Shown here: positions 18,356-44,142 of the stretch, in pieces
Numbering within the stretch: the first letter of the stretch is position 1
Layout of the letters: every line of letters starts with the position of its first letter
Assembly: GCA_038245785.1 (NCBI GenBank)
Contig: JBBRSB010000005.1
Location: 32,001-96,000 of the forward strand
Length of the DNA stretch: 64,000 nucleotides
Source of the DNA: Gloeobacterales cyanobacterium
GTDB lineage: Bacteria; Cyanobacteriota; Cyanobacteriia; Gloeobacterales; PMM-0068
Direction: 5' to 3'
Notes under the pieces: model-generated
What the model was told of the DNA's origin: nothing
The model's database searches: none
What the model saw: only the letters and a program-made list of their open reading frames with translations
Position numbers and translations under genes: made by a program

Positions 18356-18475
18356 GATTCTAAAATGCTGTGTTTAATCGGTTATGACTATCATAAGCAA
18401 TCTTGCCATCTAGCAGAATCTATTGGTCCGGATGCAGCTATTGCGCAGATGGGAAATATGCGCAGAATTGAACAT

Positions 18476-21117: not shown

Positions 21118-21332
21118 TTCTATAAGTAAACACTTATAAAAACAAGGCCAAGCGGAGAAGAGAAAAATTCGCCATTCATCGCACGGGCAGAAGTCGAATG
21201 TCTACGATTACTGGCGACGTTGCGGCTAGACCCTGCGAGATCTCAGCTTATTTTATGTGGATACCTGGCTGCGGCTGAATGTTCAGAGAGCAGGTGTTTC
21301 AGACAGCAGTTGGTACATTAGGAGAGGCTGGA

Positions 21333-21669
21333 CGGATTATCAGCGCGCGCCGGGCAACACGCATGAAAGGAGGGCTTATGAAGAAGGGACCATCTAATTC
21401 GGTACCGCCGAAAATACAGGCTGAAATTGATGCTCTAGCCGCGTTGGAAGAGCCGATCCGTACTGACCTTATCCCGGAGGCAAACGGAGATTGGAGTAAT
21501 GCGCGGCGTGGAGTTTTTTATCGCCCAATCAAACAGCAGATCACGCCATGCCTTAATGAATGCCGACCTTATAGATTGGTTCAAAACCCACGTCACCGAA
21601 GGGGAGGGGTATCAGACCCGCATCAACCGTACCCTGAGGGAATATATTACCCAGCGGCTAAATGGCTGA
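21333..21669 (+). pseudogene. BrnT C-terminal remnant plus frameshifted BrnA antitoxin
   Basis: RIISARRAT...HERRAYEE (BrnT tail). BrnA starts at ATG 21378 (...FYRPIKQQIT), frameshifts, then continues NADLIDWFK...GYQTRINRTLREYI to TGA at 21669. Confidence 0.85.
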
Positions 21670-21840
21670 GGAATATTTCCTAAGTCTATACATAGTCTCC
21701 CAATCTCTTGAGATGCCTCGCAATATAGGGATCTGGGAAGAAATGCCCTCTGGCCTTTGGATTTGTCAGCCCTCCGGCGATAAATATTTTTATTTTTTGG
21801 AGGAACGCTGGCAGGTCATCGGTCAGCACCGCATTCATAG

Positions 21841-21969
21841 CTCCTCACCAATCAGCCAGAGGCATAGGTCATCGAATTAATCCGCAAGCATCACAAGTCT
21901 GGCAAGTCTTTCCAGCAAATCGCTATCTGGCTCAATGGTCAGGGCTACTCGCCCAAGCGTGGCGAGAGC
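21841..21969 (+). pseudogene. Fragment of a serine-recombinase C-terminal domain
   Basis: Reads PEA*VIELIRKHHKSGKSFQQIAIWLNGQGYSPKRG, the IA..LN..G..KRG recombinase-domain pattern, with an internal TAG. Confidence 0.65.
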
Positions 21970-22210
21970 TTGAGAATCAGCTAGTAAAGAAATTTCAGTC
22001 ATAGAACCCCTTATAGCGAACTCCTCACTGAGCATCATCAAAAGTGCGCAAGACCCATCATGTGAGCCCAAGATCACCTTGTTTGCAAGCTGGTGTGATT
22101 ATGATTGCAGTCTCTTACACATAGATGCGTGTTTCACTGTGGGGTCGCTATGCTCTTCAAGAAAAGCGTAAGGGTTGGGCACTATATATTCGGACCGACA
22201 GGAAAACATC

Positions 22211-22654
22211 ATGAAAAAGATAGCAACAACTCTTATATTGCTCTATCTGTCCACGGGGGTCGCTAATTCTCAAACATTAGACGCCCCGTCTCCCCCCACT
22301 GTCAATCCGGTGCATTCTGGGGCATACCTTGCGAGGAAAGCGGAGGTTGCAACTGAAATAGTTTCTTATATTCAAGCAGGCATAGAGTTGCCTACATGCG
22401 AGATAGCTACCCAAGCTTGGAATAAGGCAGAGACAGATAGAGCAGCCAATCAAAGCGCTACCGATTCTGATAGATTCTGGTGGGGGCCATGGGGCGTTAC
22501 CCCCAGAGATAATTCAAAGCAGATGGCTATGTTGTTTTACAGTGCCGAGGCAGCACAAAGATTGTGTGGAAATTCTTCTCTTGTAGACAATTTGGAAAAA
22601 CGCTTTAACGCTGCTGTTCCGAGTGAGGAATTGCCTTCAAATCGCAAACACTAA
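22211..22654 (+). CDS. Hypothetical secreted protein
   Basis: Signal peptide MKKIATTLILLYLSTGVANS with AGGA upstream. Confidence 0.75.
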   Translation: MKKIATTLILLYLSTGVANSQTLDAPSPPTVNPVHSGAYLARKAEVATEIVSYIQAGIELPTCEIATQAWNKAETDRAANQSATDSDRFWWGPWGVTPRDNSKQMAMLFYSAEAAQRLCGNSSLVDNLEKRFNAAVPSEELPSNRKH

Positions 22655-22913
22655 CCTATTTTCTAAGCTAGAAAAATATCAGCTTAAATTTCTTTTTTGC
22701 TTAAGGAAAAAAACAGATGGATGCTGTGAGAAATGACAGTACCACGGTGGATTCTCTCTCTAGAGTGGCTTTTTCATATTGCTTTCTCTTAGGGGAGTTG
22801 AGTTAATGGAAAATCTACATTCGGGGTAGTCTGTTTATTTTTTAGAGTGACAGATATTACTTAGACTTCACTCTTAGCCGCGACTGGCTAGTGGACAAAT
22901 TCTATAGGACATC

Positions 22914-23624
22914 ATGAAACGATTACTTGCAATTACCTCTCTAATGGCTCTTTTGACTGGCCCTGCCATGGCCGCGCCAAGCAAGCTTGAACAAGTTTTT
23001 GATCCTGAAATGCTCTCGGTAGATCTTTCATACTTCGAGCTAGTGACTGGTCCGGCTAGAAACACTCACGGAGGCACTAAAATCTACAAAGTTGACGGCT
23101 GTGAGGTGACAGCTACCTTAGACGGTAGCACGATTCAATCACTTAGATTGGAGTTAAGCCCCTCTTGAACGTTCGACATAAACAAGTTCTTGCATGGATA
23201 CGGAAAGTTCCCCGCCCCTCATCTCATGACATTTGGGCAATTTGATGCATTAACAGGTAACGTTGGACAGTTCATGACTGCCTGCCTGAACGAATGCGGC
23301 AATATCACGGACCCGAGCGTGTATGAATATAGGTCTGGACCTCATTCAGATGGTTGGCTTGACGTAATGCTAGAGGTCAAACTAGTTGACACCCCCTCGA
23401 TAGATGCATCGTTTAAATGGGCGAAAGCGATGAAGAAGACAGAAGGAGAGGAATGGGTTCTCCAGACCAAATTTAATTGCCAACTCACGAAGTACGATAC
23501 TGTCGCCCACAACACTTTCAAGAAAGTCAGAATCACGGCAATCACAGTTGGACATAACATCAAGACTCCGGGTCATGGACTTTTAACCACATGGTCTGGT
23601 GCCGATGATTGCGGCGGAGGTTAA
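22914..23624 (+). pseudogene. Secreted Cys-containing protein interrupted by an in-frame TGA
   Basis: ORFs 22914-23168 and 23190-23624 are in the same frame, separated only by TGA at 23166-23168; signal peptide MKRLLAITSLMALLTGPAMA. Confidence 0.75.
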
Positions 23625-23874
23625 CAGTACTAGTATTTGAAATGCTTAACTATAGAGAATTACGCTAAGGCTATAACTCTCACTGAACGGTGCTCGGCGT
23701 GGGGACATGGCAATAGAAGACCCCTGGGTTTTGAATTTTTTCCATCCTGCGATTAGGATTTGTATTTCTCGGTCGAGGGCTGGCAAATTGTCGGGTTAGT
23801 AATCTAGTTGATTGCTCAGGTCTGATAACCCTCTTGAGCGAAATTTGAAAGCACATTCTCACTAGAAGACAATC

Positions 23875-23922
23875 GACTAACGATGGAAATTAGTGGCGCG
23901 CGTCCGCCTGAATTGGTTAGGA
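23875..23922 (-). other. Degenerate, internally shortened integron attC site
   Basis: Minus strand TCCTAAC-CA-ATTCAGGCGGACGCGCGCCACTAATT-TCCATC-GTTAGTC; the FRG stop codon lies inside R''. Confidence 0.65.
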
Positions 23923-24705
23923 ATCATACCTATAGATTCTGTTGGCTAACATTTCAGCAAGGCTTTCCTCAGATCCATATAGTGAATATGCGTTTATGTT
24001 CATTGCGTCAAGGTCAGCAAGTGCTTCAGCCCTAATGCATGAAGGGATAATATACCTGGTTGCAATATCTTGGTGATCGTTGCTGGGCTGAAGGGCTTCT
24101 TCGTGGCTCCCGTAATGCCAAGTACTACCAATTTTCTTCCTGCAAAAGGTGTATTCCGCCTGCTGAATATAATGCCGTCTGTGCGTTCGGATGGTTGGGC
24201 CACACCCAATTATTTGTGATTCAGATGACCACCCGCCCTTAGCGCCATCCGCGTATTCTCTGAACGAGTAAATTGCGACAGTCTTTTCTGGGCTTGGGTG
24301 CTGAAAGGCAAAGAAGGAGGCAATGTATGGAGATCTGGTCCAATCCAAAATAGGCGTTGGGAAACCGTGATGGCGTAGATAAACCATGAATTCGTAGTTC
24401 TTTGGAGGGGATGGATGATCAGCGTTGTCAAAAGCGGTGACCCATACATTATTGGTGTATGACTCAAAGGCGTGTTTTGCTACCTCTACCGTGGTTCCAT
24501 ATTCATCAATAGAGGGAAGGCTGCTTCTTCCCTTTCTTTCAATAGTGGATTCAAGACGCCAGCTCGAACACTTGTGTCCGCGAAACAATAGCGGTGATAT
24601 ATATAATTCTCCGTTAACCTGTTTGGATTCTTGGTCTAGAAGTTGGGATATTATTTCTTTCCAAGACGCCCAACTGGATAGTTCTTGACTTTTCATTCTT
24701 AGCAC
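23917..24705 (-). CDS. FRG-domain protein (gene cassette)
   Basis: LFRGH, RHHGFPTPILDWTRSPYIASFFA and R...QQAEYT motifs. Confidence 0.92.
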   Translation of the reverse strand: MLRMKSQELSSWASWKEIISQLLDQESKQVNGELYISPLLFRGHKCSSWRLESTIERKGRSSLPSIDEYGTTVEVAKHAFESYTNNVWVTAFDNADHPSPPKNYEFMVYLRHHGFPTPILDWTRSPYIASFFAFQHPSPEKTVAIYSFREYADGAKGGWSSESQIIGCGPTIRTHRRHYIQQAEYTFCRKKIGSTWHYGSHEEALQPSNDHQDIATRYIIPSCIRAEALADLDAMNINAYSLYGSEESLAEMLANRIYRYDS

Positions 24706-24748
24706 CTCACTTGCTGGGATTCCTAACTATTTATTGGACTGAATCAAA

Positions 24749-24900
24749 TCTACCTATCACACCCAATAGGGATCTTAGGTAGATTCATTTCCACCTATTT
24801 ATTCCAAGCAGGTAATTGGGTAGAAAGACTCATACTCTAATTCTACCTTGCACCTCTAATAGGGATCTTAGGCTGAAACATAACCACCTATCCGATTCCA
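24749..24900. repeat. Two imperfect ~58-bp direct repeats, period 93 bp
   Basis: 24749-24806 and 24842-24900 share TCTACCT...AATAGGGATCTTAGG...CCACCTAT...ATTCCA. Confidence 0.8.
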
Positions 24901-25124
24901 CACTATACTTTCATGAAATTTTAATCAGGGCAGAGAGTTAATTTTCTACTTCACTCAAGCAGCTATGGAACCCTGCCCAAAAAACTGGTCTAACTATTAA
25001 GTGCACATACCCAGGCATCAGAAAATTTAAGAGCGACAGCCATTTCACGTTCGCTTAATCCTTAACTTGAACTTGGAAGGCCAGAAGATAAATTTCAAAC
25101 TACTGACATAAACTGCAACTTAAG

Positions 25125-25182
25125 CGCTAACGTTTAATTCACCAGCGAGCTTCAGCGAGTCCGGTGGAATGGCTGGTTGGGC
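25125..25182 (-). other. Canonical integron attC site (58 bp)
   Basis: Minus strand: R'' GCCCAAC, 5-nt spacer CAGCC, L'' ATTCCACC, inner stem, L' GGTGAAT, spacer TAAAC, R' GTTAGCG; begins 3 nt after the stop of the upstream gene. Confidence 0.9.
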
Positions 25183-25185
25183 ATT

Positions 25186-25719
25186 TTATTTTTCATTTAT
25201 AATTTTTTGCCTAATTGGTTCCCAAATTGAAGTGATGTCGTCTCTACTTAACCCATTTTCTTCCGCATAATTATATACGATTCCGTGAAGTAACTTTATT
25301 GCTACACCATGAAGACACCATTGTGGTTCATCGTTGGGAACAGCCTCAAGTTTATCTGAGATTGCTTGTAATCTTGAAGATACCTCTTTGTCATCACTCA
25401 GAAGAGTTACGCCATGAGCAAGATCGTTACGTAAGTCTCTAAGCATATGAATTCCTTCGGCTGTTATGTCATTAACAATGCCGATTAATTGAGCTGTATT
25501 TATTGCTTTAAAAAAAGTATTGTAGGCTTCTTTGCCTTTTATTAGGTTCTTTATAGCTTGCTTTTTCTGACTTGTATCCTGCTCAATAAGTTCCTTTAGT
25601 AAGGCTTCAAGAGCAGCGCATAACACAATTACATTTCCCCTAGTTGATTCTGTAAATAGATTACGATCATAAAAAATACGTAGCCTAATGACTCTTTCAA
25701 TGATCTTATCTATTTCCAT
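25186..25719 (-). CDS. AT-rich MtlR/DUF4145 (HEPN-like) hypothetical protein (gene cassette)
   Basis: ESTRGNVIVLCAALEALL...LRDLRNDLAH contains an RxxxxH motif; bracketed by GTTGGGC and the attC. Confidence 0.8.
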   Translation of the reverse strand: MEIDKIIERVIRLRIFYDRNLFTESTRGNVIVLCAALEALLKELIEQDTSQKKQAIKNLIKGKEAYNTFFKAINTAQLIGIVNDITAEGIHMLRDLRNDLAHGVTLLSDDKEVSSRLQAISDKLEAVPNDEPQWCLHGVAIKLLHGIVYNYAEENGLSRDDITSIWEPIRQKIINEK

Positions 25720-26068
25720 AATTTTGCTCTAGTTTTAGTGCCCAACCAGTGATTATACAGTTTCTGGATATCTCCACGGGGAGAATATCAGCGCATTTGT
25801 AAGGATAGACAGCAGAAACAGCCATAAATAAGTTCCCAGAGATTGACGCTAGATAAGAAGAGCTGCTCAACTGGCAAGATCAGAGTTCAGCGCGGGTAAA
25901 TGCTTCCGTGAGGTTTGTTCCAGCCGACTAAGAATCATAAGCTACCTGGTGGCAGCAAGATAATGAAGACTGGGAGTTAGACTTTCTTTCATGGTCGTAT
26001 GCTCCTTAATGCATGGATAAATATGCTATAAGCTAATACTTAGCCATCTTTCGATTAGGATTAGGGGG

Positions 26069-26341
26069 TTAGTTTATGTCATGGTTGTTTAGAGTCTCTT
26101 CCAAATGATCAACTTTGCTTTCCAGGTCAGAAACTTTTTCTTCAGTTTTTTCCTCTCGAATGTCTGTATTGTTTTCTAGCTGCCCAAGGCGGGTTTCCAT
26201 TTCATCTACGCTGGATTGCATATTCTGGAAACTTGAAATAGCAAAAGTAGCTGTCGATAGCAATAACAAAACTAGCGCTATACCGATTACTCGATTCATG
26301 ATTTTCTCATATTTATGTATGTGGACTGTTGTAAGTTGCAC
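26069..26341 (-). CDS. Small membrane-anchored coiled-coil hypothetical protein
   Basis: One hydrophobic helix followed by an acidic heptad region; the true start may be the internal ATG (MNRVIG). Confidence 0.55.
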   Translation of the reverse strand: MQLTTVHIHKYEKIMNRVIGIALVLLLLSTATFAISSFQNMQSSVDEMETRLGQLENNTDIREEKTEEKVSDLESKVDHLEETLNNHDIN

Positions 26342-26625
26342 GGCATATAGCCATTCAGCATTACGCGGACCTCTCTTTGAATATGCCCCTTAATCGGGGC
26401 CGATCCATCGCCCAAAGCTTCTCCCCTGATAGAGAAGTTGGGGGGGGTGCATATCCCTCGAAAAGGTATATTTCGGGGTCTAAGCAGCGAAGAATTAGGC
26501 GTTAAGAAGCCCTGATATAAAGGCTTCTGCCGATCCTTTGGACTCATAGTTTCCGTAACTCTCTTTGACCTTCCCTCGAAAAAGTGGACATTCCCGAAGA
26601 GTCGTTAACCGAGGAGAATGTTCAG

Positions 26626-26934
26626 ATGTCGCAAAAACCACGCAGACTATTTACTCCTGAGCAAAAAGCTGAGGCAGTTCGCATCGTCACTCAATCTGGC
26701 AAACCCGTCAGCCAAGTTGCCAAAGAGATGGGTTTAACCGAAAGTGCCCTTCGCCAATGGGTTAAACAAGCCCAGATCGACCATCAATCAGACCCACAGG
26801 GTCCATTGACCTCTACTGAACGTAAAGAACTGATTACTTTACGCCGGGACTTGAAACGGGTTCAAATGGAGCGGGATTTCCTAAAAAAAGCAGCGACCTT
26901 CTTTGCGAAGGAAAGCTCAGACCCTATGAGCTAA
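26626..26934 (+). CDS. IS3 OrfA (HTH)
   Basis: RRLFTPEQKAEAV...VAKEMGLTESALRQWV...ERDFLKKAATFFAK; ATG about 26626 after GAGGAG. Confidence 0.92.
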   Translation: MSQKPRRLFTPEQKAEAVRIVTQSGKPVSQVAKEMGLTESALRQWVKQAQIDHQSDPQGPLTSTERKELITLRRDLKRVQMERDFLKKAATFFAKESSDPMS

Positions 26935-26966
26935 TCCATGCAGAGAAGGTTAACTTTTCTATTGCC

Positions 26967-27806
26967 TTGATGTGTAAAGTGCTCAATCTGTCCAGGAGTG
27001 GCTATTACGCCTGGTTCAAGTGCAAAGCATCCCCCAGAACTCAGGAGAATGAAATCTTGTCACAACAAATTCAACAGATTTACCAAGCAAGTCGTGAAAC
27101 CTATGGCTCCCCCCGGATTCATGCATCGCTAGTGGACAAAGGCTTTCAGGTCGGTCGTCAACGGGTCGTGCGATTAATGGCAAAGCTCGGTATCTGCGTC
27201 CGCCCTAAGCGTAAATTCAAGGTCACGACCGATTCTGGACATGACTTACCGATTGCTGAGAATGTTCTGGATAGGGACTTTACAACGAGTGAACCTGACC
27301 GGTCTTGGGCAGCAGATTTGACGTATGTCTGGACCACTGAAGGATGGCTTTACTTGGCTGTCATTATCGACCTGTTCTCCCGACGGGTAGTGGGGTGGTC
27401 CATGGCTGAGCATATGCGTACAGAATTGGTTTTGACAGCTTTAGACGCAGCTTTGGGGCAGCGCATACCCTCACAAGCTGGGTTGGTCTTTCATTCTGAA
27501 CGGGGCAGCCAATACGCCAGTGGAGACTACCAAGCTGCTCTCCAGAAGGCTGGCATAACCTGTAGTATGAGCCGTCGAGCCAATTGTTGGGATAACGCCG
27601 TGGCTGAAAGTTTTTTTGGTACCCTCAAAACCGAGTTGATCTATCCGAGGATTTTCTCCTCAAGAGCAATCGCCAGGACAACCATCGCGGAGTGGATCGA
27701 AGTGTTTTACAATCGACAACGAATGCACTCGACGATTGGATATCTTTCCCCAGTTCAATTTGAAGAAAATTACTGGTGCACCCTAAATCACCCCATGGTA
27801 GCTTAA
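26967..27806 (+). CDS. IS3 OrfB integrase core (expressed by -1 frameshift)
   Basis: WAADLTY, HSERGSQY (D changed to E), DNAVAESFFGTLKTE. Confidence 0.93.
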   Translation: MMCKVLNLSRSGYYAWFKCKASPRTQENEILSQQIQQIYQASRETYGSPRIHASLVDKGFQVGRQRVVRLMAKLGICVRPKRKFKVTTDSGHDLPIAENVLDRDFTTSEPDRSWAADLTYVWTTEGWLYLAVIIDLFSRRVVGWSMAEHMRTELVLTALDAALGQRIPSQAGLVFHSERGSQYASGDYQAALQKAGITCSMSRRANCWDNAVAESFFGTLKTELIYPRIFSSRAIARTTIAEWIEVFYNRQRMHSTIGYLSPVQFEENYWCTLNHPMVA

Positions 27807-27952
27807 GTTACCTGTCCACTTTTTTGGGGTAAGGTCACTTTGAGCACGGCAGAGATGAGTTCGCAATCCACCTAGAAATGCGAACTCTCTGTCTATTTCG
27901 CTCTACTGGTCAACATAAAGCTCGGCCACACAAGTAGATATTCTGGATGAGG

Positions 27953-28816
27953 CTACGGTTTATAGAAAGCAGGCCCAGTACATCCTTTCAGAGCATTGGG
28001 CATAGATGGAGTTGCACATTGTAATTTCATGTCTTCAACTTCAGTTAGCGCACCATCTTTACTAAGCACTACTGCGCAATCATTTGCAAGGTAATCCCTT
28101 CTTGCTCTGTTGCGCTCTTCTTGCCCAATATACGCTCCTGTGTATGGGTTGTAAGGTTGATACTCTGACTTTGCGCTGTTCAGAAAATAGCACATGTTCA
28201 CGGAATAGTCACTGAGGATGCGGTCACAGTGCATCGATTGAGACCAATGCTTACCGATTGAAAGGTATGGCTCTTCCCACGGAATTGCTAGCGCCCCAGT
28301 AAAAGGATCAAATTTAGCTTTACCCGTCAAATGGTCGCTTTTTATTCCGCACGATTGAGACGTGAATAGAACGTATCTAGAAGGTTTGTTCTCCTTCACC
28401 TCAAGTTTTGCATTTTTTAAAAAACTTTCAAGAGTTCCATCACTGAAAGCAATCTTTATCTGAGTTTTGTGAGCGCTAGCTTTAGGGCAATTCAACTTAT
28501 CTTCAAAAAGATTGTCTGCTATCCATGAACTAATAGTACTTTGCTTCTGCTCCTCAAGTGAGCCTGGATAAAGAGGTTCTAGTAAGTTAATTTGGTCGCT
28601 TCCCATAGAAAAACTTTTATCTATTGATTGGCAATTTTGTCCTAAAGCACTATCGGCTAATACTTCAAATTCAAGTTCTTGCGCATTAGATTGTATGTAT
28701 TGTTCCAAAGTCTTAGGTAAAGGGGCAGCTTGCCCAGCATCGCCCGTCAAAACAACGGTCGAGAAAAGAACACAGAGAACAGTTAGTCGAAAGAGTAGGG
28801 TAGACATAGTGGTCAT
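27953..28816 (-). CDS. Hypothetical secreted Cys-rich protein
   Basis: Part of ORF 27953-28999; the signal-peptide-like stretch after MTTMST suggests a start near 28816. Confidence 0.65.
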   Translation of the reverse strand: MTTMSTLLFRLTVLCVLFSTVVLTGDAGQAAPLPKTLEQYIQSNAQELEFEVLADSALGQNCQSIDKSFSMGSDQINLLEPLYPGSLEEQKQSTISSWIADNLFEDKLNCPKASAHKTQIKIAFSDGTLESFLKNAKLEVKENKPSRYVLFTSQSCGIKSDHLTGKAKFDPFTGALAIPWEEPYLSIGKHWSQSMHCDRILSDYSVNMCYFLNSAKSEYQPYNPYTGAYIGQEERNRARRDYLANDCAVVLSKDGALTEVEDMKLQCATPSMPNALKGCTGPAFYKP

Positions 28817-28946
28817 GGGAACTCCTAAATTGGATGGGAACACGGTCTGATCTACGAGGTTGAGACAGCTATGGCTTTTGAAACTCAAACTTGCGGGGGA
28901 TGTTTTACAGAGATTGCAGTTACAAATATTGGAGGTAAGGCCCTTT

Positions 28947-29780
28947 TCATTTCTTTTTTTTAGTGCTTGCGGTGTGGGCGACGATAGCCTCTCGCCCATA
29001 GAGAAGTGCTGAGTATGCTGTAGGTGCTTCAGGCCACCCCTCGGGCGGAAGAGGGCGAAGACTGAGCGGCAGTTCCGTTTCCATATCGAAGGTGCTGTTC
29101 CGCCAGGGATTCAGGCTTTGCACGGGAAAGGGAAGAGTGGGCGAAGCGTCCCACGCTACCAAGAAAGCTAGTGGGAAGAACTTGATGAACCAGGCGAGGA
29201 ATGGCTCTTGTCTTCCGAGATCTATGTATGAGGCGTCTCGCACCAAGACTTGCGGCTTGTGCGGGTACGCCCAGTAGTACATAGACAAAGCCTGCGGTAA
29301 TGGTTTCGACAAATCAAGAATGTAGTCTCGGACTTCTTCGGTATGCGGCCCCTTTCTGTATCGATCTACCCCTTGTGCTGCGATATGGCCGAGCACCGAA
29401 CGCATGATCGCCTGCGGGCGGGCAGGCACTGCCAAGGGCGACGGCAGATACAGACTACTCTGAAGGAGCGCTGCGGTCCCATTGGCGACGGCAATCAAGT
29501 AGGGATCGTACGTGTGGCCGAGAAGTTTGTTGTTGCAGCGACCGCAGAGCGTTCGGTACTTGACCCCATTCTGCGAGAATGACCTTTTCACCTTAGGCAC
29601 CGAAGCGGAAAGTGCGTGAGTGATGTGTAGAAGTTCGACTTCTGTCGGACGGACACAGCCTTTTGGTGGAGTGTGATCCTCCGTGAGTGGACCTACTTCT
29701 CCGCAGATATTGCAAGCGCCGTTCCTTGGACCCCTAGTCTCAACGCTGAAACCCTTATTTGACTTTGAATACTTCCGCAT
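28947..29780 (-). CDS. HNH-like Zn-binding protein
   Basis: CNICG...TEDHTPPK...LCGRCNN pattern of HNH-type nucleases; higher GC than its neighbours. Confidence 0.75.
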   Translation of the reverse strand: MRKYSKSNKGFSVETRGPRNGACNICGEVGPLTEDHTPPKGCVRPTEVELLHITHALSASVPKVKRSFSQNGVKYRTLCGRCNNKLLGHTYDPYLIAVANGTAALLQSSLYLPSPLAVPARPQAIMRSVLGHIAAQGVDRYRKGPHTEEVRDYILDLSKPLPQALSMYYWAYPHKPQVLVRDASYIDLGRQEPFLAWFIKFFPLAFLVAWDASPTLPFPVQSLNPWRNSTFDMETELPLSLRPLPPEGWPEAPTAYSALLYGREAIVAHTASTKKKK

Positions 29781-30019
29781 AGCAGCTTAAATTAGCAGGA
29801 TACCCAGAAAATTTCTGGATATAACTCAATATTGGAATGTCATCTGGAAATGCCTAGACCAAGGGAGAGATGTAATCGGAATCCATCAATTTCTAGGGAG
29901 TCAGGCGGGCAAACTCTCCCAAAAGAGTCTCTACTTACAAAAATCTGTAGAAGGGGAATTGAAGCATTAGAGCAGTTTTATAGATTTAAGTAGTTGCATG
30001 AATTTTAATTAGCAATCAC

Positions 30020-38127: not shown

Positions 38128-40653
38128 ATGACAAAGGTGAGACGCGGTAAGGGTGGCTTTTCACTGGTAATGACCCTCTTCATCGGAATCATTCTGACTG
38201 GGGCTTCCTTAGCCATTGTTTATCGGTCTTCGAATGAGGTGCAAATATCTACCGCTCAAAGCGGCTCTGTAAGTGCTTTAAATGCTGCTGAATCAGCGGG
38301 AGCTTCAGCCCTTCAAGAACTCCTCACCCGTGCCAACAGCGTGTCGTTTGCCAATGCGCTGAGCAGTGATAACTTTCTTCCCTATCTCTGTAAAAATACT
38401 CCAGACTGGGCACTCGTCGAAAAGGCCAGTGGAACCATGATTTCTGCTGCTTCTGTGGTGACGGAAGACTCCAGCAGTCCGTCTAGCAATTCCTCAAAAG
38501 ACTATCCGGCACAGACATTTGATCCTCTACTCTTAGCGACCAATCAGAATTTAAGTGCTGGAGGGATTACAGATCCTAAGGATCTGGGATTGGTTAATCT
38601 AACCCTGACTAGCTGTACCGGAAGCGAGCCGAATACAGCCAGTGGCGGAAAAGCATTCCTTCCAGGTTCGGCAGCCGGACCTGGCTTGACCTGGACTACT
38701 GCTCAAGTAGATCCTGGGCCAGGTCCAACGGCGGGTGGCCTTGAAATCAGCCGTGCGAAGAAGATTGGGAATGCAGGAAATAATGAAGTTTGGAGCAGAG
38801 CCGTCCTCAAAGATTTCAAACTGAATGTGGTAGAAGCCATTGCTGGAGCAGATCCGGCCAATGCCGCCACCTTTAATAAGCCGACCGGTGTATTTCGCCT
38901 AATCTATACCTTTAATATTGTGGCTGAAGGTACCATCCGCACTGCTGGCGGGGCGATTACGGGCCGCCAGATTATTCAAGCCCCCAATCTGCTTGTCATC
39001 GATATCAGACAAAAGACTCAAGGAAATTCAAGTTTTTCCCAGTACTCTTTCTTTATTGATGATTCAGATGTTTGCTATGGTACCAATCAAATCATTACGG
39101 GCAGAGCGCATGTGAATAAAGATATTTGCTTCTTCAATCCTGCGCCTGGTGAGACCAAGATAGAATTTACCGATGAATTTACTACTGCCCAATGTCAGTT
39201 TATAGGGAATTGCCCCTATGGCGTAGTCGGTCGCCCTAGAGCTGCTAACTTTTCAGGGGGAGCTAAGTTCAAAGAGCAAGGTATTGGCTATATTCAAAAA
39301 CCTGATATCGGGAACTATCAACTTAAAGCTGCACTTTTCGGACAGGCTAGCCCTTCTCTTAATCCTGAAAACGACACTTTAAAAAATTCAGAAATTCGCA
39401 CCCAAATTGGTATAAATTCATCTTCCACGCCTCCGCCTGTCGGGGTCTACTGGGTTAATCCCACGGATAAGGCAGCGAGCAATACAGACCCGACAACGTA
39501 TAGTAATTGGCTGGCTCAAGCTACCAATAAGGCTACGAATCCCAACAACATAGAAGACAATCTACTCCCTGGCATTTTTATTCAAGGCAATGTGGACTAT
39601 GTCAACATGTACGCAGCAAAGTCTAGTGGAAGCAATGACCCTGATCTGCAGATTATAGAAATTCAACAGATTACAGCAGGAGAGACTCGAAAGACCAGGT
39701 TTTCTTTGAATAAAGAGGCTAATACAACTGCTGTTGAAGTAGCTTCTGGAACGGGGACCTACGGTGCACCGATTAGCTATAACAAAACTTTTAATGGCAT
39801 TATTTTCATCGATGGTGATGTGGGAGATAATACAAAAGCCTGTTCTCCTAACAATAAAAATACTTGTCGCGGGGTGATTAGTATTTCTGGTAATGATTTG
39901 CCCACGGGGGTCACAGCCCCTGCGACTCTTTCTGTAGGTCCGCCCTCTAATCTTGATAGCATCAAGGACACGCCAACGATTCAAAAAGACTGGGGTATCA
40001 CGCTGGCAGTGAATGGAGATATAGCGATTCAAGATAATTTAGATTATCAGGTCGATCCAAGGGGGGCAGACCGTAAATTTGGCACAAACCCTTTTACGAA
40101 TAGCCATGATGATCCAGAGGTAGCAGAGGCGAAAAATGCCCTGGGTATCATTGCTTTTGACAAAAGACAATACAAGAATGAAGACGGCACGGTGGCCTCT
40201 CCTATCCAAGTAAACGGCACTATCTACTGGGGACAGGGCCTGAAAGATAATGTTCGACTGGGTAGAGATCCTGCTGACAGTAAGGACGTCGATGTTGTCA
40301 ATGTCCAAGCCTCTCTCTATGGCTACAGCGAAACTTTGAACTACGATAATGATCGCCTCGCTGAATATATACAGGTACTCGGTAGTGAGATTATGACGAA
40401 GGCCAAGGGAGATTACCGCTTTGGTTGCTCTTCCCGAATTACTCCACCGGGAGGGGCCACTTTCACTTCTGACTTTTGCAGTGGCAGTAAGGTGAAAATT
40501 ATTGGCGATAAGCGTTTTTCTAATGGTACCTATGCTCCACCCGGATTTCCCACCGTTGCCCAAACGATCACAGGTCCTTTTCCTTATGATGTAAAGGCTG
40601 CAGGTAAACAATCTATTGGTAAGGTCCGCTGGCAAACTCTTGAATATCAGTAA
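38128..40653 (+). CDS. Large PilX/ComZ-like minor pilin (841 aa)
   Basis: Class III signal RRGKGG|FSLVM lacking Glu5; SSFSQYSFFID...GRAHVN and ITLAVNGDIAIQDNLDY...NALGIIA blocks. Confidence 0.75.
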   Translation: MTKVRRGKGGFSLVMTLFIGIILTGASLAIVYRSSNEVQISTAQSGSVSALNAAESAGASALQELLTRANSVSFANALSSDNFLPYLCKNTPDWALVEKASGTMISAASVVTEDSSSPSSNSSKDYPAQTFDPLLLATNQNLSAGGITDPKDLGLVNLTLTSCTGSEPNTASGGKAFLPGSAAGPGLTWTTAQVDPGPGPTAGGLEISRAKKIGNAGNNEVWSRAVLKDFKLNVVEAIAGADPANAATFNKPTGVFRLIYTFNIVAEGTIRTAGGAITGRQIIQAPNLLVIDIRQKTQGNSSFSQYSFFIDDSDVCYGTNQIITGRAHVNKDICFFNPAPGETKIEFTDEFTTAQCQFIGNCPYGVVGRPRAANFSGGAKFKEQGIGYIQKPDIGNYQLKAALFGQASPSLNPENDTLKNSEIRTQIGINSSSTPPPVGVYWVNPTDKAASNTDPTTYSNWLAQATNKATNPNNIEDNLLPGIFIQGNVDYVNMYAAKSSGSNDPDLQIIEIQQITAGETRKTRFSLNKEANTTAVEVASGTGTYGAPISYNKTFNGIIFIDGDVGDNTKACSPNNKNTCRGVISISGNDLPTGVTAPATLSVGPPSNLDSIKDTPTIQKDWGITLAVNGDIAIQDNLDYQVDPRGADRKFGTNPFTNSHDDPEVAEAKNALGIIAFDKRQYKNEDGTVASPIQVNGTIYWGQGLKDNVRLGRDPADSKDVDVVNVQASLYGYSETLNYDNDRLAEYIQVLGSEIMTKAKGDYRFGCSSRITPPGGATFTSDFCSGSKVKIIGDKRFSNGTYAPPGFPTVAQTITGPFPYDVKAAGKQSIGKVRWQTLEYQ

Positions 40654-41414
40654 TGGATGCGATGAACGGTTTTAGCTTATCTATCCCCAAGCGACAGGTT
40701 AAAGGCTTAACACTGATTGAAGTGCTTGTCTCGATCGCCTTTGCTGCTATCCTTTTATCCGCTCTATCGGTCCCCCTAGCGATTGGCCTTATTAATCGCA
40801 TTCAGGGGAGAAAACTTACAGAAGCAACCAATTTGGCGCAGACTCAGATGGAAGCTATCCGTGCGAGTTGGTCAGTACCCACTGCTGTGAGCGCAAGTAC
40901 AGCAATGCTAACGATAGGACAGCAGAATTTTGATAACAATAGAATCAATATTCCCTGGAATACCTTGAATGCTATCCAAACCTGTCCTCCAACTCCCGTA
41001 GGCGAAAAAACGATCTATGCAGCTACCAACAAAGACTTAAACTATAGCGATGCCACCAAAAGCCCCAAGTTGCTGACAGACCCCTCCTTAGTCGCACCCA
41101 ATAATGTCAATATTCCTAGTGTGGTCAAAGCGATTGAGATTGATGCTGATGGGAAGCCTGATCTGAACGGAAAATGCACTCAGGACTATTGGGGACAAAT
41201 CATGTTTGGCAATGCGCCTGATGATAATACGGGCGTAGCACTCAAAGACACGAAGCGCATTGTAGTCCGCATTTTTACCTTGGAAGAAGACCCAAAAACG
41301 CTTAATATTGCGCTTGCTCCTACTGCTAAACTCACTACCTATAGTCTCAATCCAAACCAACAAAATTTGGGTTTGCCTTTAGTCGTACTTATTTCTGATA
41401 TTCCCCGTCCCTAG
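40653..41414 (+). CDS. Type IV minor pilin (PilV-like)
   Basis: KG|LTLIEVLV prepilin motif; ATNLAQTQMEAIR. Confidence 0.88.
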   Translation: MDAMNGFSLSIPKRQVKGLTLIEVLVSIAFAAILLSALSVPLAIGLINRIQGRKLTEATNLAQTQMEAIRASWSVPTAVSASTAMLTIGQQNFDNNRINIPWNTLNAIQTCPPTPVGEKTIYAATNKDLNYSDATKSPKLLTDPSLVAPNNVNIPSVVKAIEIDADGKPDLNGKCTQDYWGQIMFGNAPDDNTGVALKDTKRIVVRIFTLEEDPKTLNIALAPTAKLTTYSLNPNQQNLGLPLVVLISDIPRP

Positions 41415-41424
41415 AGAAATTCCC

Positions 41425-41931
41425 ATGCACCGCCAGCGTAGTGGTTTTACCTTAACAGAGATGCTCGTTACTATTTCGATGGTAGGAATTTTAGCAGCGA
41501 TTAGCACAGCGTCTCTTCAGCCTTTACTCCAAAGACAAAGACTTGCCCAAGCTGCTCAACAGGTTGAACAAGCAATCCGCAAAACACAGCAAACAGCGGT
41601 TACACGCGCTCAGCAGATTTATATCGAATTTGATAACGACTCCTACACGCTTGGCTCTGGAAACCCTTGCACAGTGCCACGGAGTATTCTAGCGACAGAG
41701 CGTCTTCCTGTTCAAATACAGATAAATTTGGCGATGCCCGGAGGTAGCACGCTCAATACAGGCGGTTGTCCTCCTGCCCTAAAGCCTCTGGTCCTCTTTG
41801 ATTTTCAGGGTATGGCGAGAATGAATGATGCTGGTAAATTTGTTCGCTTAAATAGTTCATCTCTGACAGACATTAATTATGACGTTTACATCTTGAGTAT
41901 TTTGGGTGATGTGGGTACTGCAAAACCATAG
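41425..41931 (+). CDS. Type IV minor pilin (FimT/FimU/GspH-like)
   Basis: SG|FTLTEMLV; FDFQG motif. Confidence 0.88.
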   Translation: MHRQRSGFTLTEMLVTISMVGILAAISTASLQPLLQRQRLAQAAQQVEQAIRKTQQTAVTRAQQIYIEFDNDSYTLGSGNPCTVPRSILATERLPVQIQINLAMPGGSTLNTGGCPPALKPLVLFDFQGMARMNDAGKFVRLNSSSLTDINYDVYILSILGDVGTAKP

Positions 41932-41945
41932 GATTTCAAACCATC

Positions 41946-42725
41946 ATGAAGACTAGATATGTACGTAAAAAAAGCGGCTTTACTCTTTTCGAAGTGCTGG
42001 TCACCGCTGTAATCTCCAGTGTGATGGTCTTAGCCTTGATCAGTGGAGCCACAGGATTTTTTAGCCGTGATAGTCAGGAACAACAAAGAGTTCTTGCTCA
42101 GCAGCGTTTGCGCTTAGTAACTTCTGTAATCAGTGCTGACCTGCGAGAAGCTGCATATATCTATCGAGATGCAGACCTGAATATAGTTGTCGGTCTAGTG
42201 AATGGAGGAACCAGCAGTGCAAAATTGAACGGAACAACCCCAAAACTAGCCATGTTGGTTCCTTATAAAGGGACCTCTATTAGTGACAAAGATAAATTCA
42301 GATTAGTGATCTATGCGCTTGGTCCCGTTCCCAATGCCGAACCTTTCAACTCCATTCGTTCTATCAAGGGGAAAGGCAACGTTATTTATCGCTGGTTTTC
42401 GGCGCCGGAAGAATTCGATCCAATTATCCAAAATCAGGGAAACGGCAAACCCCCTAATGCATTGAATGGCAGTTTTATGACCTATGGCGGTACAGGGACC
42501 GACACTCGCCCTCCAGTATTGGTCGTGGGGGTAGCCAATGATGGCCTATCCACAACTTCTACTGGTGGGCAATTCGGACCAGCGAATAGTGACCTTGGCA
42601 AAAATATAACGGTCCAGGCCTATCAAGATTCTTCGCTTGTGGGGGATGCTCCGAAAGTCAGCTTTTATGCTCAGGCCCGCAATTTGGGGCTACCGTCTAC
42701 GCCCATTCCCCCTTCGAGCCTCTAA
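41946..42725 (+). CDS. Type IV minor pilin (PilW-like)
   Basis: SG|FTLFEVLV; ISADLREA. Confidence 0.88.
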   Translation: MKTRYVRKKSGFTLFEVLVTAVISSVMVLALISGATGFFSRDSQEQQRVLAQQRLRLVTSVISADLREAAYIYRDADLNIVVGLVNGGTSSAKLNGTTPKLAMLVPYKGTSISDKDKFRLVIYALGPVPNAEPFNSIRSIKGKGNVIYRWFSAPEEFDPIIQNQGNGKPPNALNGSFMTYGGTGTDTRPPVLVVGVANDGLSTTSTGGQFGPANSDLGKNITVQAYQDSSLVGDAPKVSFYAQARNLGLPSTPIPPSSL

Positions 42726-43942: not shown

Positions 43943-44142
43943 GCTTAGAGACCAGCAAGCATTCCTCAAGCATCTGACCGAGATTTGGAAGCCTGCTTCT
44001 GAAAACTCGTAATGCTTGTGCCTAGATTCAAGGAGGCGCCCTGTACAAAATTAGTTAATGTACTTATTATTAATAGGTAGAATAATAGTGCTTGAAGAAT
44101 GTAGAATTGTGAAGTGTCAGACCTGCCTATGAGGATCGTGCT

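Follow-up and report, generated by a model that had tools for sequence, protein, structure and literature searches.

A same-strand stack of decayed integron heads in a Gloeobacterales cyanobacterium and its likely origin from whole integrons inserted at att sites

The window considered in this work is a stretch of 64,000 nucleotides of a Gloeobacterales cyanobacterial genome (designated G000; contig C5, positions 32,001–96,000). At 16.5–31.3 kb it holds an island of toxin-antitoxin genes, foreign open reading frames (ORFs) and an insertion sequence (IS) of the IS3 family, bounded by two housekeeping genes. Integron remnants lie in this island: attI sites, attC sites of gene cassettes and cut-off starts of the integrase gene intI. 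A first-pass annotation had pointed to four attI-like 19-mers, at 24721, 24988, 25740 and 29785 (sites 1 to 4), all of which are present there, and had proposed that each cassette is headed by such a site instead of a preceding attC. According to the present analysis, the stretch very probably contains three integron heads of three different intI lineages (A, C and D), two real attI sites and two cassettes, with no integrase in cis; a search for an intact intI in the window found none.

Site 1 (24721–24739, minus strand) can be identified as the attI simple site of head D, with one cassette. It consists of the L box GTCCAAT, a 5-nt spacer and the R box G/TTAGGA, where the slash marks the crossover, here between 24727 and 24726. 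Head D (24721–24987, minus strand), as delimited by paralogue alignments and an internal repeat (D2), comprises attI, paired-box repeats spaced 93 bp apart, which are likely accessory IntI sites, and the intI upstream region. This 267-bp block is 80% identical over 275 bp to positions 44094–44368 of contig C17 and 83% identical to a copy on C43, and the alignment holds up to G/TT, after which all three diverge. At the far end of the block and pointing away from it lies a 5' stub of the lineage-D intI (24965–24987, plus strand, about codons 1–7, M-E-P-C-P-K), which aligns to the intI starts of C17 and C2 and is cut exactly at site 2. The C17 paralogue also adjoins an intI stub; there intI runs for 31 codons and is then joined to the last intI codons. 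Searches for head D gave no match in 20 relatives, nor by exact pattern across the genome collection, and the site itself resembles the intI-linked attI of locus L028.

The R box of site 1 is the exact complement of the R'' of its own cassette. This cassette 1 (23875–24726, minus strand) is formed by an FRG-domain gene (23917–24705; Pfam FRG, E 2e-19) and a decayed attC (23875–23922; R'' TCCTAAC, R' G/TTAGTC), the right half of which scores 12.3 bits, while the left half is degraded and the folding (z 0.08) is no better than that of shuffles. Past the cassette crossover there is a unit of about 250 nt and an inverted lipoprotein-like gene with an internal stop (22914–23880). Its paralogue on contig C19 (241–1230) starts at the same G/TT, after a different cassette and a lineage-B head.

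Site 3 (25740–25758, minus strand; L GTATAAT, spacer CACTG, R G/TTGGGC, crossover between 25746 and 25745) is likewise recognizable, from its sequence surroundings, as the attI simple site of a head with one cassette, in this case of lineage C. Head C (25740–25876, minus strand) includes a 5' stub of long-form intI (25824–25876, plus strand), which aligns to the start of the full-length intI of locus L072. It is 84–85% identical to heads on C38 and C25, each heading ordinary attC arrays. A metagenome scan gave 16 loci (some mutually identical), mostly 87–95% alike, with varied cassettes and each diverging just after G/TT. In public sequencing runs, loose ends at 25740–25744 were met in 11, 4 and 2 contigs of three runs; these may represent other copies of head C and not necessarily the window locus. 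Full intI is present at the homologous lineage-C loci L072 and L149, and that of L072 is a long-form gene (TIGR02249, 354 bits) with one in-frame stop near its start, the product of which is 44% identical to the intact integrase encoded on contig C2 of G000.

Cassette 2 carries a gene for 177 amino acids (25186–25719, minus strand, 35% GC), an ORF with only a below-threshold match to DUF3644, and an attC (25125–25182, minus strand; R'' GCCCAAC, R' G/TTAGCG; score 33.4, L boxes pairing 7/7) that starts with the exact complement of the site 3 R box. A contig of run X6 continues into other DNA from the R' of this attC onward, with a loose end at 25127. Sites 1 and 3 share a common position, just upstream of an intI start (now a 5' stub) and divergent from it, and upstream of both there are paired repeats, which are candidate accessory IntI-binding sites. 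Close matches to the two sites were found at L028 and L032. The sequence TTTCTGGATAT, noted earlier as following sites 3 and 4, is confirmed at 25761 and 29812; it occurs in 18 copies genome-wide and can be regarded as a box of integron-head promoter regions.

The other two sites are of a different kind. Site 2 with 118 nt beyond it (24988–25124, minus strand) is a candidate decayed attC by its L'-6-R' shape, with a right end composed of L' TGTGCAC, a 6-nt spacer and R' G/TTAGAC; the same shape is found at an attC end in L149. Profile and alignment searches of the genome found no head-family homologue of 24988–25124. Its attC-right matrix score is weak (2.7 bits), the outer arms pair with one extra base, the folding z is +0.7 and R'' is absent. 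We read site 2 as the probable right end of a decayed attC and not as the attI of any head family. Its R box coincides exactly with the cut point of the lineage-D intI stub, a junction that fits either an insertion or a deletion.

Site 4 (29785–29803) is a mid-promoter sequence within a lineage-A head, corresponding to the middle of the family A model. The head A relic (29745–29883, minus strand; nhmmer E 1.8e-16) covers model positions 28–135 of 217 and retains an intI stub (29854–29883, plus strand) and promoter-region boxes; attI is gone, and the relic runs into the start of a 277-aa ORF, across a junction that contigs of runs X2, X6 and X7 cover as well. As an attI, site 4 was ruled out by its four mismatches, its matrix score of −2.3 bits and its mid-head position. 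For the two weaker look-alikes named in the first-pass annotation, near 18409 and 26345, shifting by up to 6 nt gave no register with three or fewer mismatches, and their matrix scores are negative. Thus, the attI-like character ascribed to all these sites is retained for sites 1 and 3, by head homology and cassette anatomy, but not for sites 2 and 4 or the look-alikes. An attI in place of a preceding attC was found at the FRG gene and the 177-aa gene, the two identifiable cassettes; site 2 precedes an intI stub, and at site 4 the ORF start falls within head DNA.

The bare pattern RYYYAAY-N5-RTTRRRY, from which sites 1 and 3 deviate by one mismatch each, site 2 by two and site 4 by four, is no commoner than chance when checked against shuffles of 16.5–31.5 kb: three matches with at most one mismatch were counted versus 1.7 ± 1.4, and 22 with at most two versus 19.0 ± 4.7. 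A matrix built from eight intI-linked attI ends of other cyanobacteria gave 14.9 bits for site 1 (41 scores as high in the genome versus 21 in the reversed genome), 12.7 bits for site 3 (102 versus 91, not significant alone) and a background value of 6.6 bits for site 2. As the bare pattern is uninformative, the sites were judged by context, and sites 1 and 3 were accepted as real because of extended homology and cassette anatomy, not because of the motif. It is very improbable that chance matches or decayed attC halves account for all the sites. Such an explanation agrees with the absence of enrichment and is true of site 4 as parsed and of the look-alikes, and probably of site 2, but it is refuted for sites 1 and 3, which end conserved heads of 135–270 bp beside intI stubs and the homologues of which diverge at G/TT.

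A search of the whole genome for intI, as recommended in the first-pass annotation, revealed a single gene over the TIGR02249 cut-off, on C2 (321 aa, 480 bits), which has the catalytic motifs; a broken intI lies on C8, and both genes are outside the window. Heads are much more numerous. Profiles of four head families recovered about 30 clear copies, with no match below E 0.6 in the reversed genome, and a hand-curated list has 41 entries on 27 contigs (40 loci once the two ends of one head are merged, about six of them weak). Many of these heads carry intI stubs cut at differing codons, and on C17, C38 and C8 intI is internally deleted with both ends left. In the attC matrix scan only scores of at least 25 were counted, with about two false matches expected, because below about 25 matches in the reversed genome roughly equal the real ones (68 versus 62 above 16). 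Twenty of the 38 sites so obtained lie within 6 kb downstream of an attI-bearing head, and seven of the remaining 18 are on two tiny contigs. For the 11 heads with a strong attC within 2.6 kb, R and R'' matched exactly in six cases and near-exactly in one, the other four being non-matching or mis-parsed. Three same-strand heads occur within 7 kb on C7.

The first-pass annotation had offered two interpretations, an integrase-less capture platform with a repeated attI loaded in trans, or serial modules of attI and cassette. The modules hold for sites 1 and 3, not for sites 2 and 4, and the same layout recurs on C7, in a complete genome of the same order (G003) and in other cyanobacteria. The repeated site of a single platform resolves into the ends of three unrelated heads of lineages A, C and D, each with its own intI remnant. 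The coexistence of three intI lineages and some 30–40 heads with one intact intI in the genome argues against a purpose-built integrase-less platform. It is improbable, in our opinion, that the genome maintains a dedicated multi-attI platform as a system, with its single IntI doing the loading in trans. The ratio of one intact intI to about 30–40 heads would suit it, as would the 87–95% identity of head C across samples in combination with varied cassettes. It is at odds with the presence of an intI stub of a different lineage at each head, with the restriction of attI to two of the four sites, with heads in all states of decay and with the cognate IntI of site 3, which shares only 44% identity with the intact enzyme and remains in G000 as fragments.

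Additional support for such a platform comes from another cyanobacterial genus, three genomes of which contain an orthologous intI-less head beside the same gene, presumably cobS judging by a motif, followed by three different first cassettes. A family search gave only partial intI matches in these three genomes. The different cassettes at an orthologous head would fit continued loading in trans, in that genus and not in the window; at the window heads, loading in trans is plausible. In that genus, the tandem heads are duplicates within one family with a repeated element at the join, a different route to serial heads. More widely, over-cutoff intI was found in 17 of 301 genomes of the phylum, and 5' intI fragments are common. 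Where intI starts could be retrieved in other cyanobacteria, the upstream region mostly ends in the same L-5-G/TT site. When four such heads were used as DNA queries against 14 genomes, several dispersed copies turned up in G037, G269, G145, G151, G294, G205, G155 and G129 and only 1–4 matches, partly intI itself, in others (e.g., G110, G099 and G058). Serial same-strand modules of head and cassette occur in other cyanobacteria, too.

The route by which heads may have been stacked is indicated by junctions between attC and intI in relatives. In G003, four lineage-C heads lie on one strand within about 17 kb, and the order at locus L149 is a second head, two cassettes, a complete attC, intI, its own head and further cassettes. 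The R' of this attC, G/TTAGAT, overlaps the stop codon of an intact long-form IntI gene (440 aa, 363 bits). The same junction of G/TTAGAT with the stop codon was met at three loci of a metagenome-assembled genome (MAG) of Leptolyngbyaceae, with three different left flanks, one of them a complete attC and two unrelated DNA; homology ends exactly at the G of G/TT. Over 126 nt, 98% identity was found between two of these intI ends; a third comparison was out of register. Furthermore, L072 and a locus on C38 of G000 have an attC-type right end with G/TTAYGC 18–20 nt past the intI stop, although in L072 the contig starts just three letters before the core. In total, a G/TT core at the stop codon or within 20 nt of it is present at six of nine cyanobacterial-type long-intI ends, in four of seven genomes or samples. 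These junctions suggest that whole integrons may travel as cassettes, and a G/TT start with unrelated left flanks, as a cassette-like integron with long intI would have, was indeed met in G003, at the three MAG loci, in L072 and on C38.

Taking these data together, it seems somewhat likely that the stretch is a same-strand stack of three decayed heads, derived from whole integrons for which IntI-mediated insertion at att sites was followed by loss of intI. According to this scheme, the core G/TTRRRY at the 3' end of intI would first recombine with an attC of its own array, giving a circle with intI, promoters, attI and cassettes. The circle would then integrate as cassettes do, the target being an attI, an attC or else a secondary GTT site, and could end up within an older array, with the same strand orientation, or at a new locus. 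Subsequent deletions would remove intI and leave the 5' stub, the promoter region and attI, an end state that is visible in the window. The head would probably be kept after the deletion because it drives cassette expression, and the surviving attI could still be loaded by an integrase made elsewhere. The first two steps have their best support in lineage C (site 3), whereas for lineages A and D the support is weak. Still more tentatively, and with rather less than even confidence, we propose that some cyanobacterial integrons are self-mobilising, with the core at the intI stop allowing intI, promoters, attI and cargo to move as one cassette, also into other arrays. Repeated cycles of insertion and intI deletion might create dozens of orphan attI docking sites, loadable by one surviving or incoming integrase.

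A number of observations weigh against the insertion of whole integrons. Three of the nine cyanobacterial-type long-intI ends have no clean core (degenerate in L095, absent in L102 and G374), and the core was found in none of 33 non-cyanobacterial relatives (38 of 45 loci, those with a 3' end, being examined). None of 21 short-form intI 3' ends had an attC right half of at least 9 bits within 100 nt of the stop; in the short-form G269 an attC left half lies about 170–190 nt from the intI stop. Both lineage A and lineage D have the short form. The exact junction, followed by intI, was found in only 1 of 401 genomes: a 17-nt junction pattern matched 17 times in 16 of them, with intI following once, and twice more in viral sequences without intI. 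An attC-intI junction could equally arise by insertion of a cassette at the core, or by an attC × secondary-site deletion joining two nearby integrons. A single junction gives no direction, and only the MAG case with its three flanks requires movement. A terminal attC with the matching R'' (ATCTAAC) was not seen in the G003 array, and for the R'' GCATAAC in L072 and C38 the last ordinary cassette is an equally good explanation. Since no intI 3' end is left in the window, the entry junctions cannot be read there. Strand bias is weak as well: neighbouring heads of G000 within 15 kb share the strand in 7 of 8 pairs (p 0.035), which becomes 6 of 7 once the two ends of one head are merged (p ~0.06).

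Alternatively, IntI may have played no part in moving the heads: ordinary integrons would have reached an insertion hot spot independently of one another, through transformation, IS activity or duplication at repeats, and deletions would have joined what was left of them. We regard this as rather unlikely, although several observations agree with it. The island is full of toxin-antitoxin genes, IS3 and fragments; the same-family tandem heads in the other genus join at a repeated element and not at a clean G/TT; short intIs have no 3' junction; and the intI breakpoints vary widely. A head on the opposite strand lies 7 kb away, namely, a partial head of lineage B, the lineage of the intact intI of the genome (17278–17338, plus strand; nhmmer E 4.6e-7). 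Independent arrival leaves unexplained why three MAG intI ends with different left flanks all end at G/TT and why the attC-intI junction in G003 is clean; same-strand stacking in G000 and G003 also speaks against it. Thus, insertion of whole integrons followed by intI loss is preferred here, with the window as a late, decayed example and G003 as a clean one.

Some other observations on integron heads should be mentioned. A TTAGAC/CTAGAC box in intI codons 8–9 is located at several breakpoints (24965–24990 and 29854 in the window, C53:12236 and C9:385) and is possibly a self-inflicted secondary site. A clustering of intI breakpoints at this box would agree with W1, W4, C53 and C9a, but the majority of the other stubs have their ends at different places. 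A direct start of heads at the R' of an attC proved not to be general. A presumed IS110-type element, assigned from its transposase and the sequence of its end, occupies one and the same repeat box in lineage-B heads (C2:1–145, C53:12440–12470 and C7:26196–27488), including the head of the intact intI, which suggests an IS that targets integron heads. Two small contigs, C81 and C213, contain a homogeneous array of seven 90-bp attC sites but carry no head; this may be the array that belongs to the intact C2 integron, split off by assembly. The lineage-C integron island on C38 is flanked on either side by a copy of a toxin-antitoxin and ABC-permease sequence of about 1 kb (21290–22580 and 28300–29320). 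At metagenome loci, a partial lineage-B head is situated directly upstream of a lineage-C head (L064, reverse, about 200–423), and heads C and D face each other 3.5 kb apart (L062, 157–231 and 3731–3979).

As to the rest of the window, the IS3-family insertion (26566–27837, plus strand; Pfam match, terminal inverted repeats) is missing in contigs of runs X2, X6 and X7, which have seven different letters at that spot; it is a recent, strain-specific insertion. Beyond head C, the depth of runs X2 and X6 at 25880–26514 is 3–6 times that of the flanks, with loose ends at 25880, 25949 and 26448, probably due to small dispersed repeats. In the raw-read run X21, not a single read fell on the stretch. 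A decayed attC-like sequence (22646–22700, plus strand) overlaps the stop codon of a 159-aa gene (22175–22654) and folds no better than shuffles. About 40 nt at 22770–22815 match a repeat present at least seven times on C20 (17315–33777), which may be an array resembling clustered regularly interspaced short palindromic repeats (CRISPR). A cluster of four genes at 38128–42725 encodes pilin-like proteins with N-terminal methylation-type leaders. An Rfam scan of the window gave no match. A sigma-70 promoter scan of 23.5–30.1 kb gave 5 matches versus 10 expected, none inside the heads, and did not locate a cassette promoter.

These results touch on two questions, the spread of chromosomal integrons between loci and genomes without a transposon and the origin of attC-site clusters that have no integron-integrase (CALINs). 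If the G/TT junction at the intI stop works as a site, integrons can move themselves. In Betaproteobacteria, according to a 2008 study by Gillings and colleagues, the same chromosomal class 1 integron reportedly occurs at different loci without a transposon, the mechanism having been left open. A literature search, with older subscription papers and supplements outside its scope, found neither arrays with several attI sites nor integrons behaving as cassettes described for cyanobacteria. What is new here, as far as the literature compared shows, is a likely route to head stacking via the attC-intI junction in relatives.

The stretch itself fits a CALIN, having the attC at 25125–25182, the decayed attC at 23875–23922 and no intact intI. 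In the parts considered, Cury et al. 2016 (PMC4889954) define CALINs, report that 95% of them have no intI pseudogene, as searched for via the C-terminal domain, state that attI is not searchable for most integrons, and list loss of intI and exchange with an integron elsewhere among the CALIN origins. Heads such as those described here would be missed by that approach, because pseudogenes were sought through the C-terminal domain and attI was mostly unsearchable. Standard searches would generally overlook them, since only the 5' end of intI survives, and many seemingly integrase-less arrays may therefore be decapitated integrons. The likeness to CALINs and single attC sites lacking integron-integrases (SALINs; PMC4889954; bioRxiv 10.1101/2022.09.11.507474) consists in attC-terminated cassettes with no intact intI nearby, while the difference is that the cassettes in the window keep attI and a 5' intI stub, with several head lineages in one array. 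In the relevant part of Ghaly et al. 2022 (PMC9668308), it is noted that IntI is able to act in trans on the cassettes of CALINs.

The head of a sedentary chromosomal integron, arranged as intI-Pint/Pc-attI (model attI1 with L, R, DR1 and DR2; PMC9892861, PMC8876359), shares with the present heads the divergent intI start, the 5-nt spacer, the G/TT crossover, repeated boxes upstream and cassettes with complementary R' and R''. In contrast to it, intI is cut here to 7–17 codons, a genome has about 30–40 heads instead of one, and the upstream boxes are long paired repeats over 100–250 bp. Chromosomal integrons are treated as non-mobile in the literature compared, unlike the movement proposed above. 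The chemistry that such movement would need, G/WT insertion and imprecise excision taking neighbouring DNA, is supplied by secondary-site and attI × attI recombination: the portions considered of Loot et al. (bioRxiv 10.1101/2022.09.11.507474) describe attG sites (GWT) as targets of insertion and excision that lies outside the point of insertion, and those of Escudero et al. 2016 (PMC4792948) show attI × attI recombination. In secondary-site recombination as described there, the moving unit is a cassette or a cassette array, whereas in the mechanism suggested here intI and attI would move as well.

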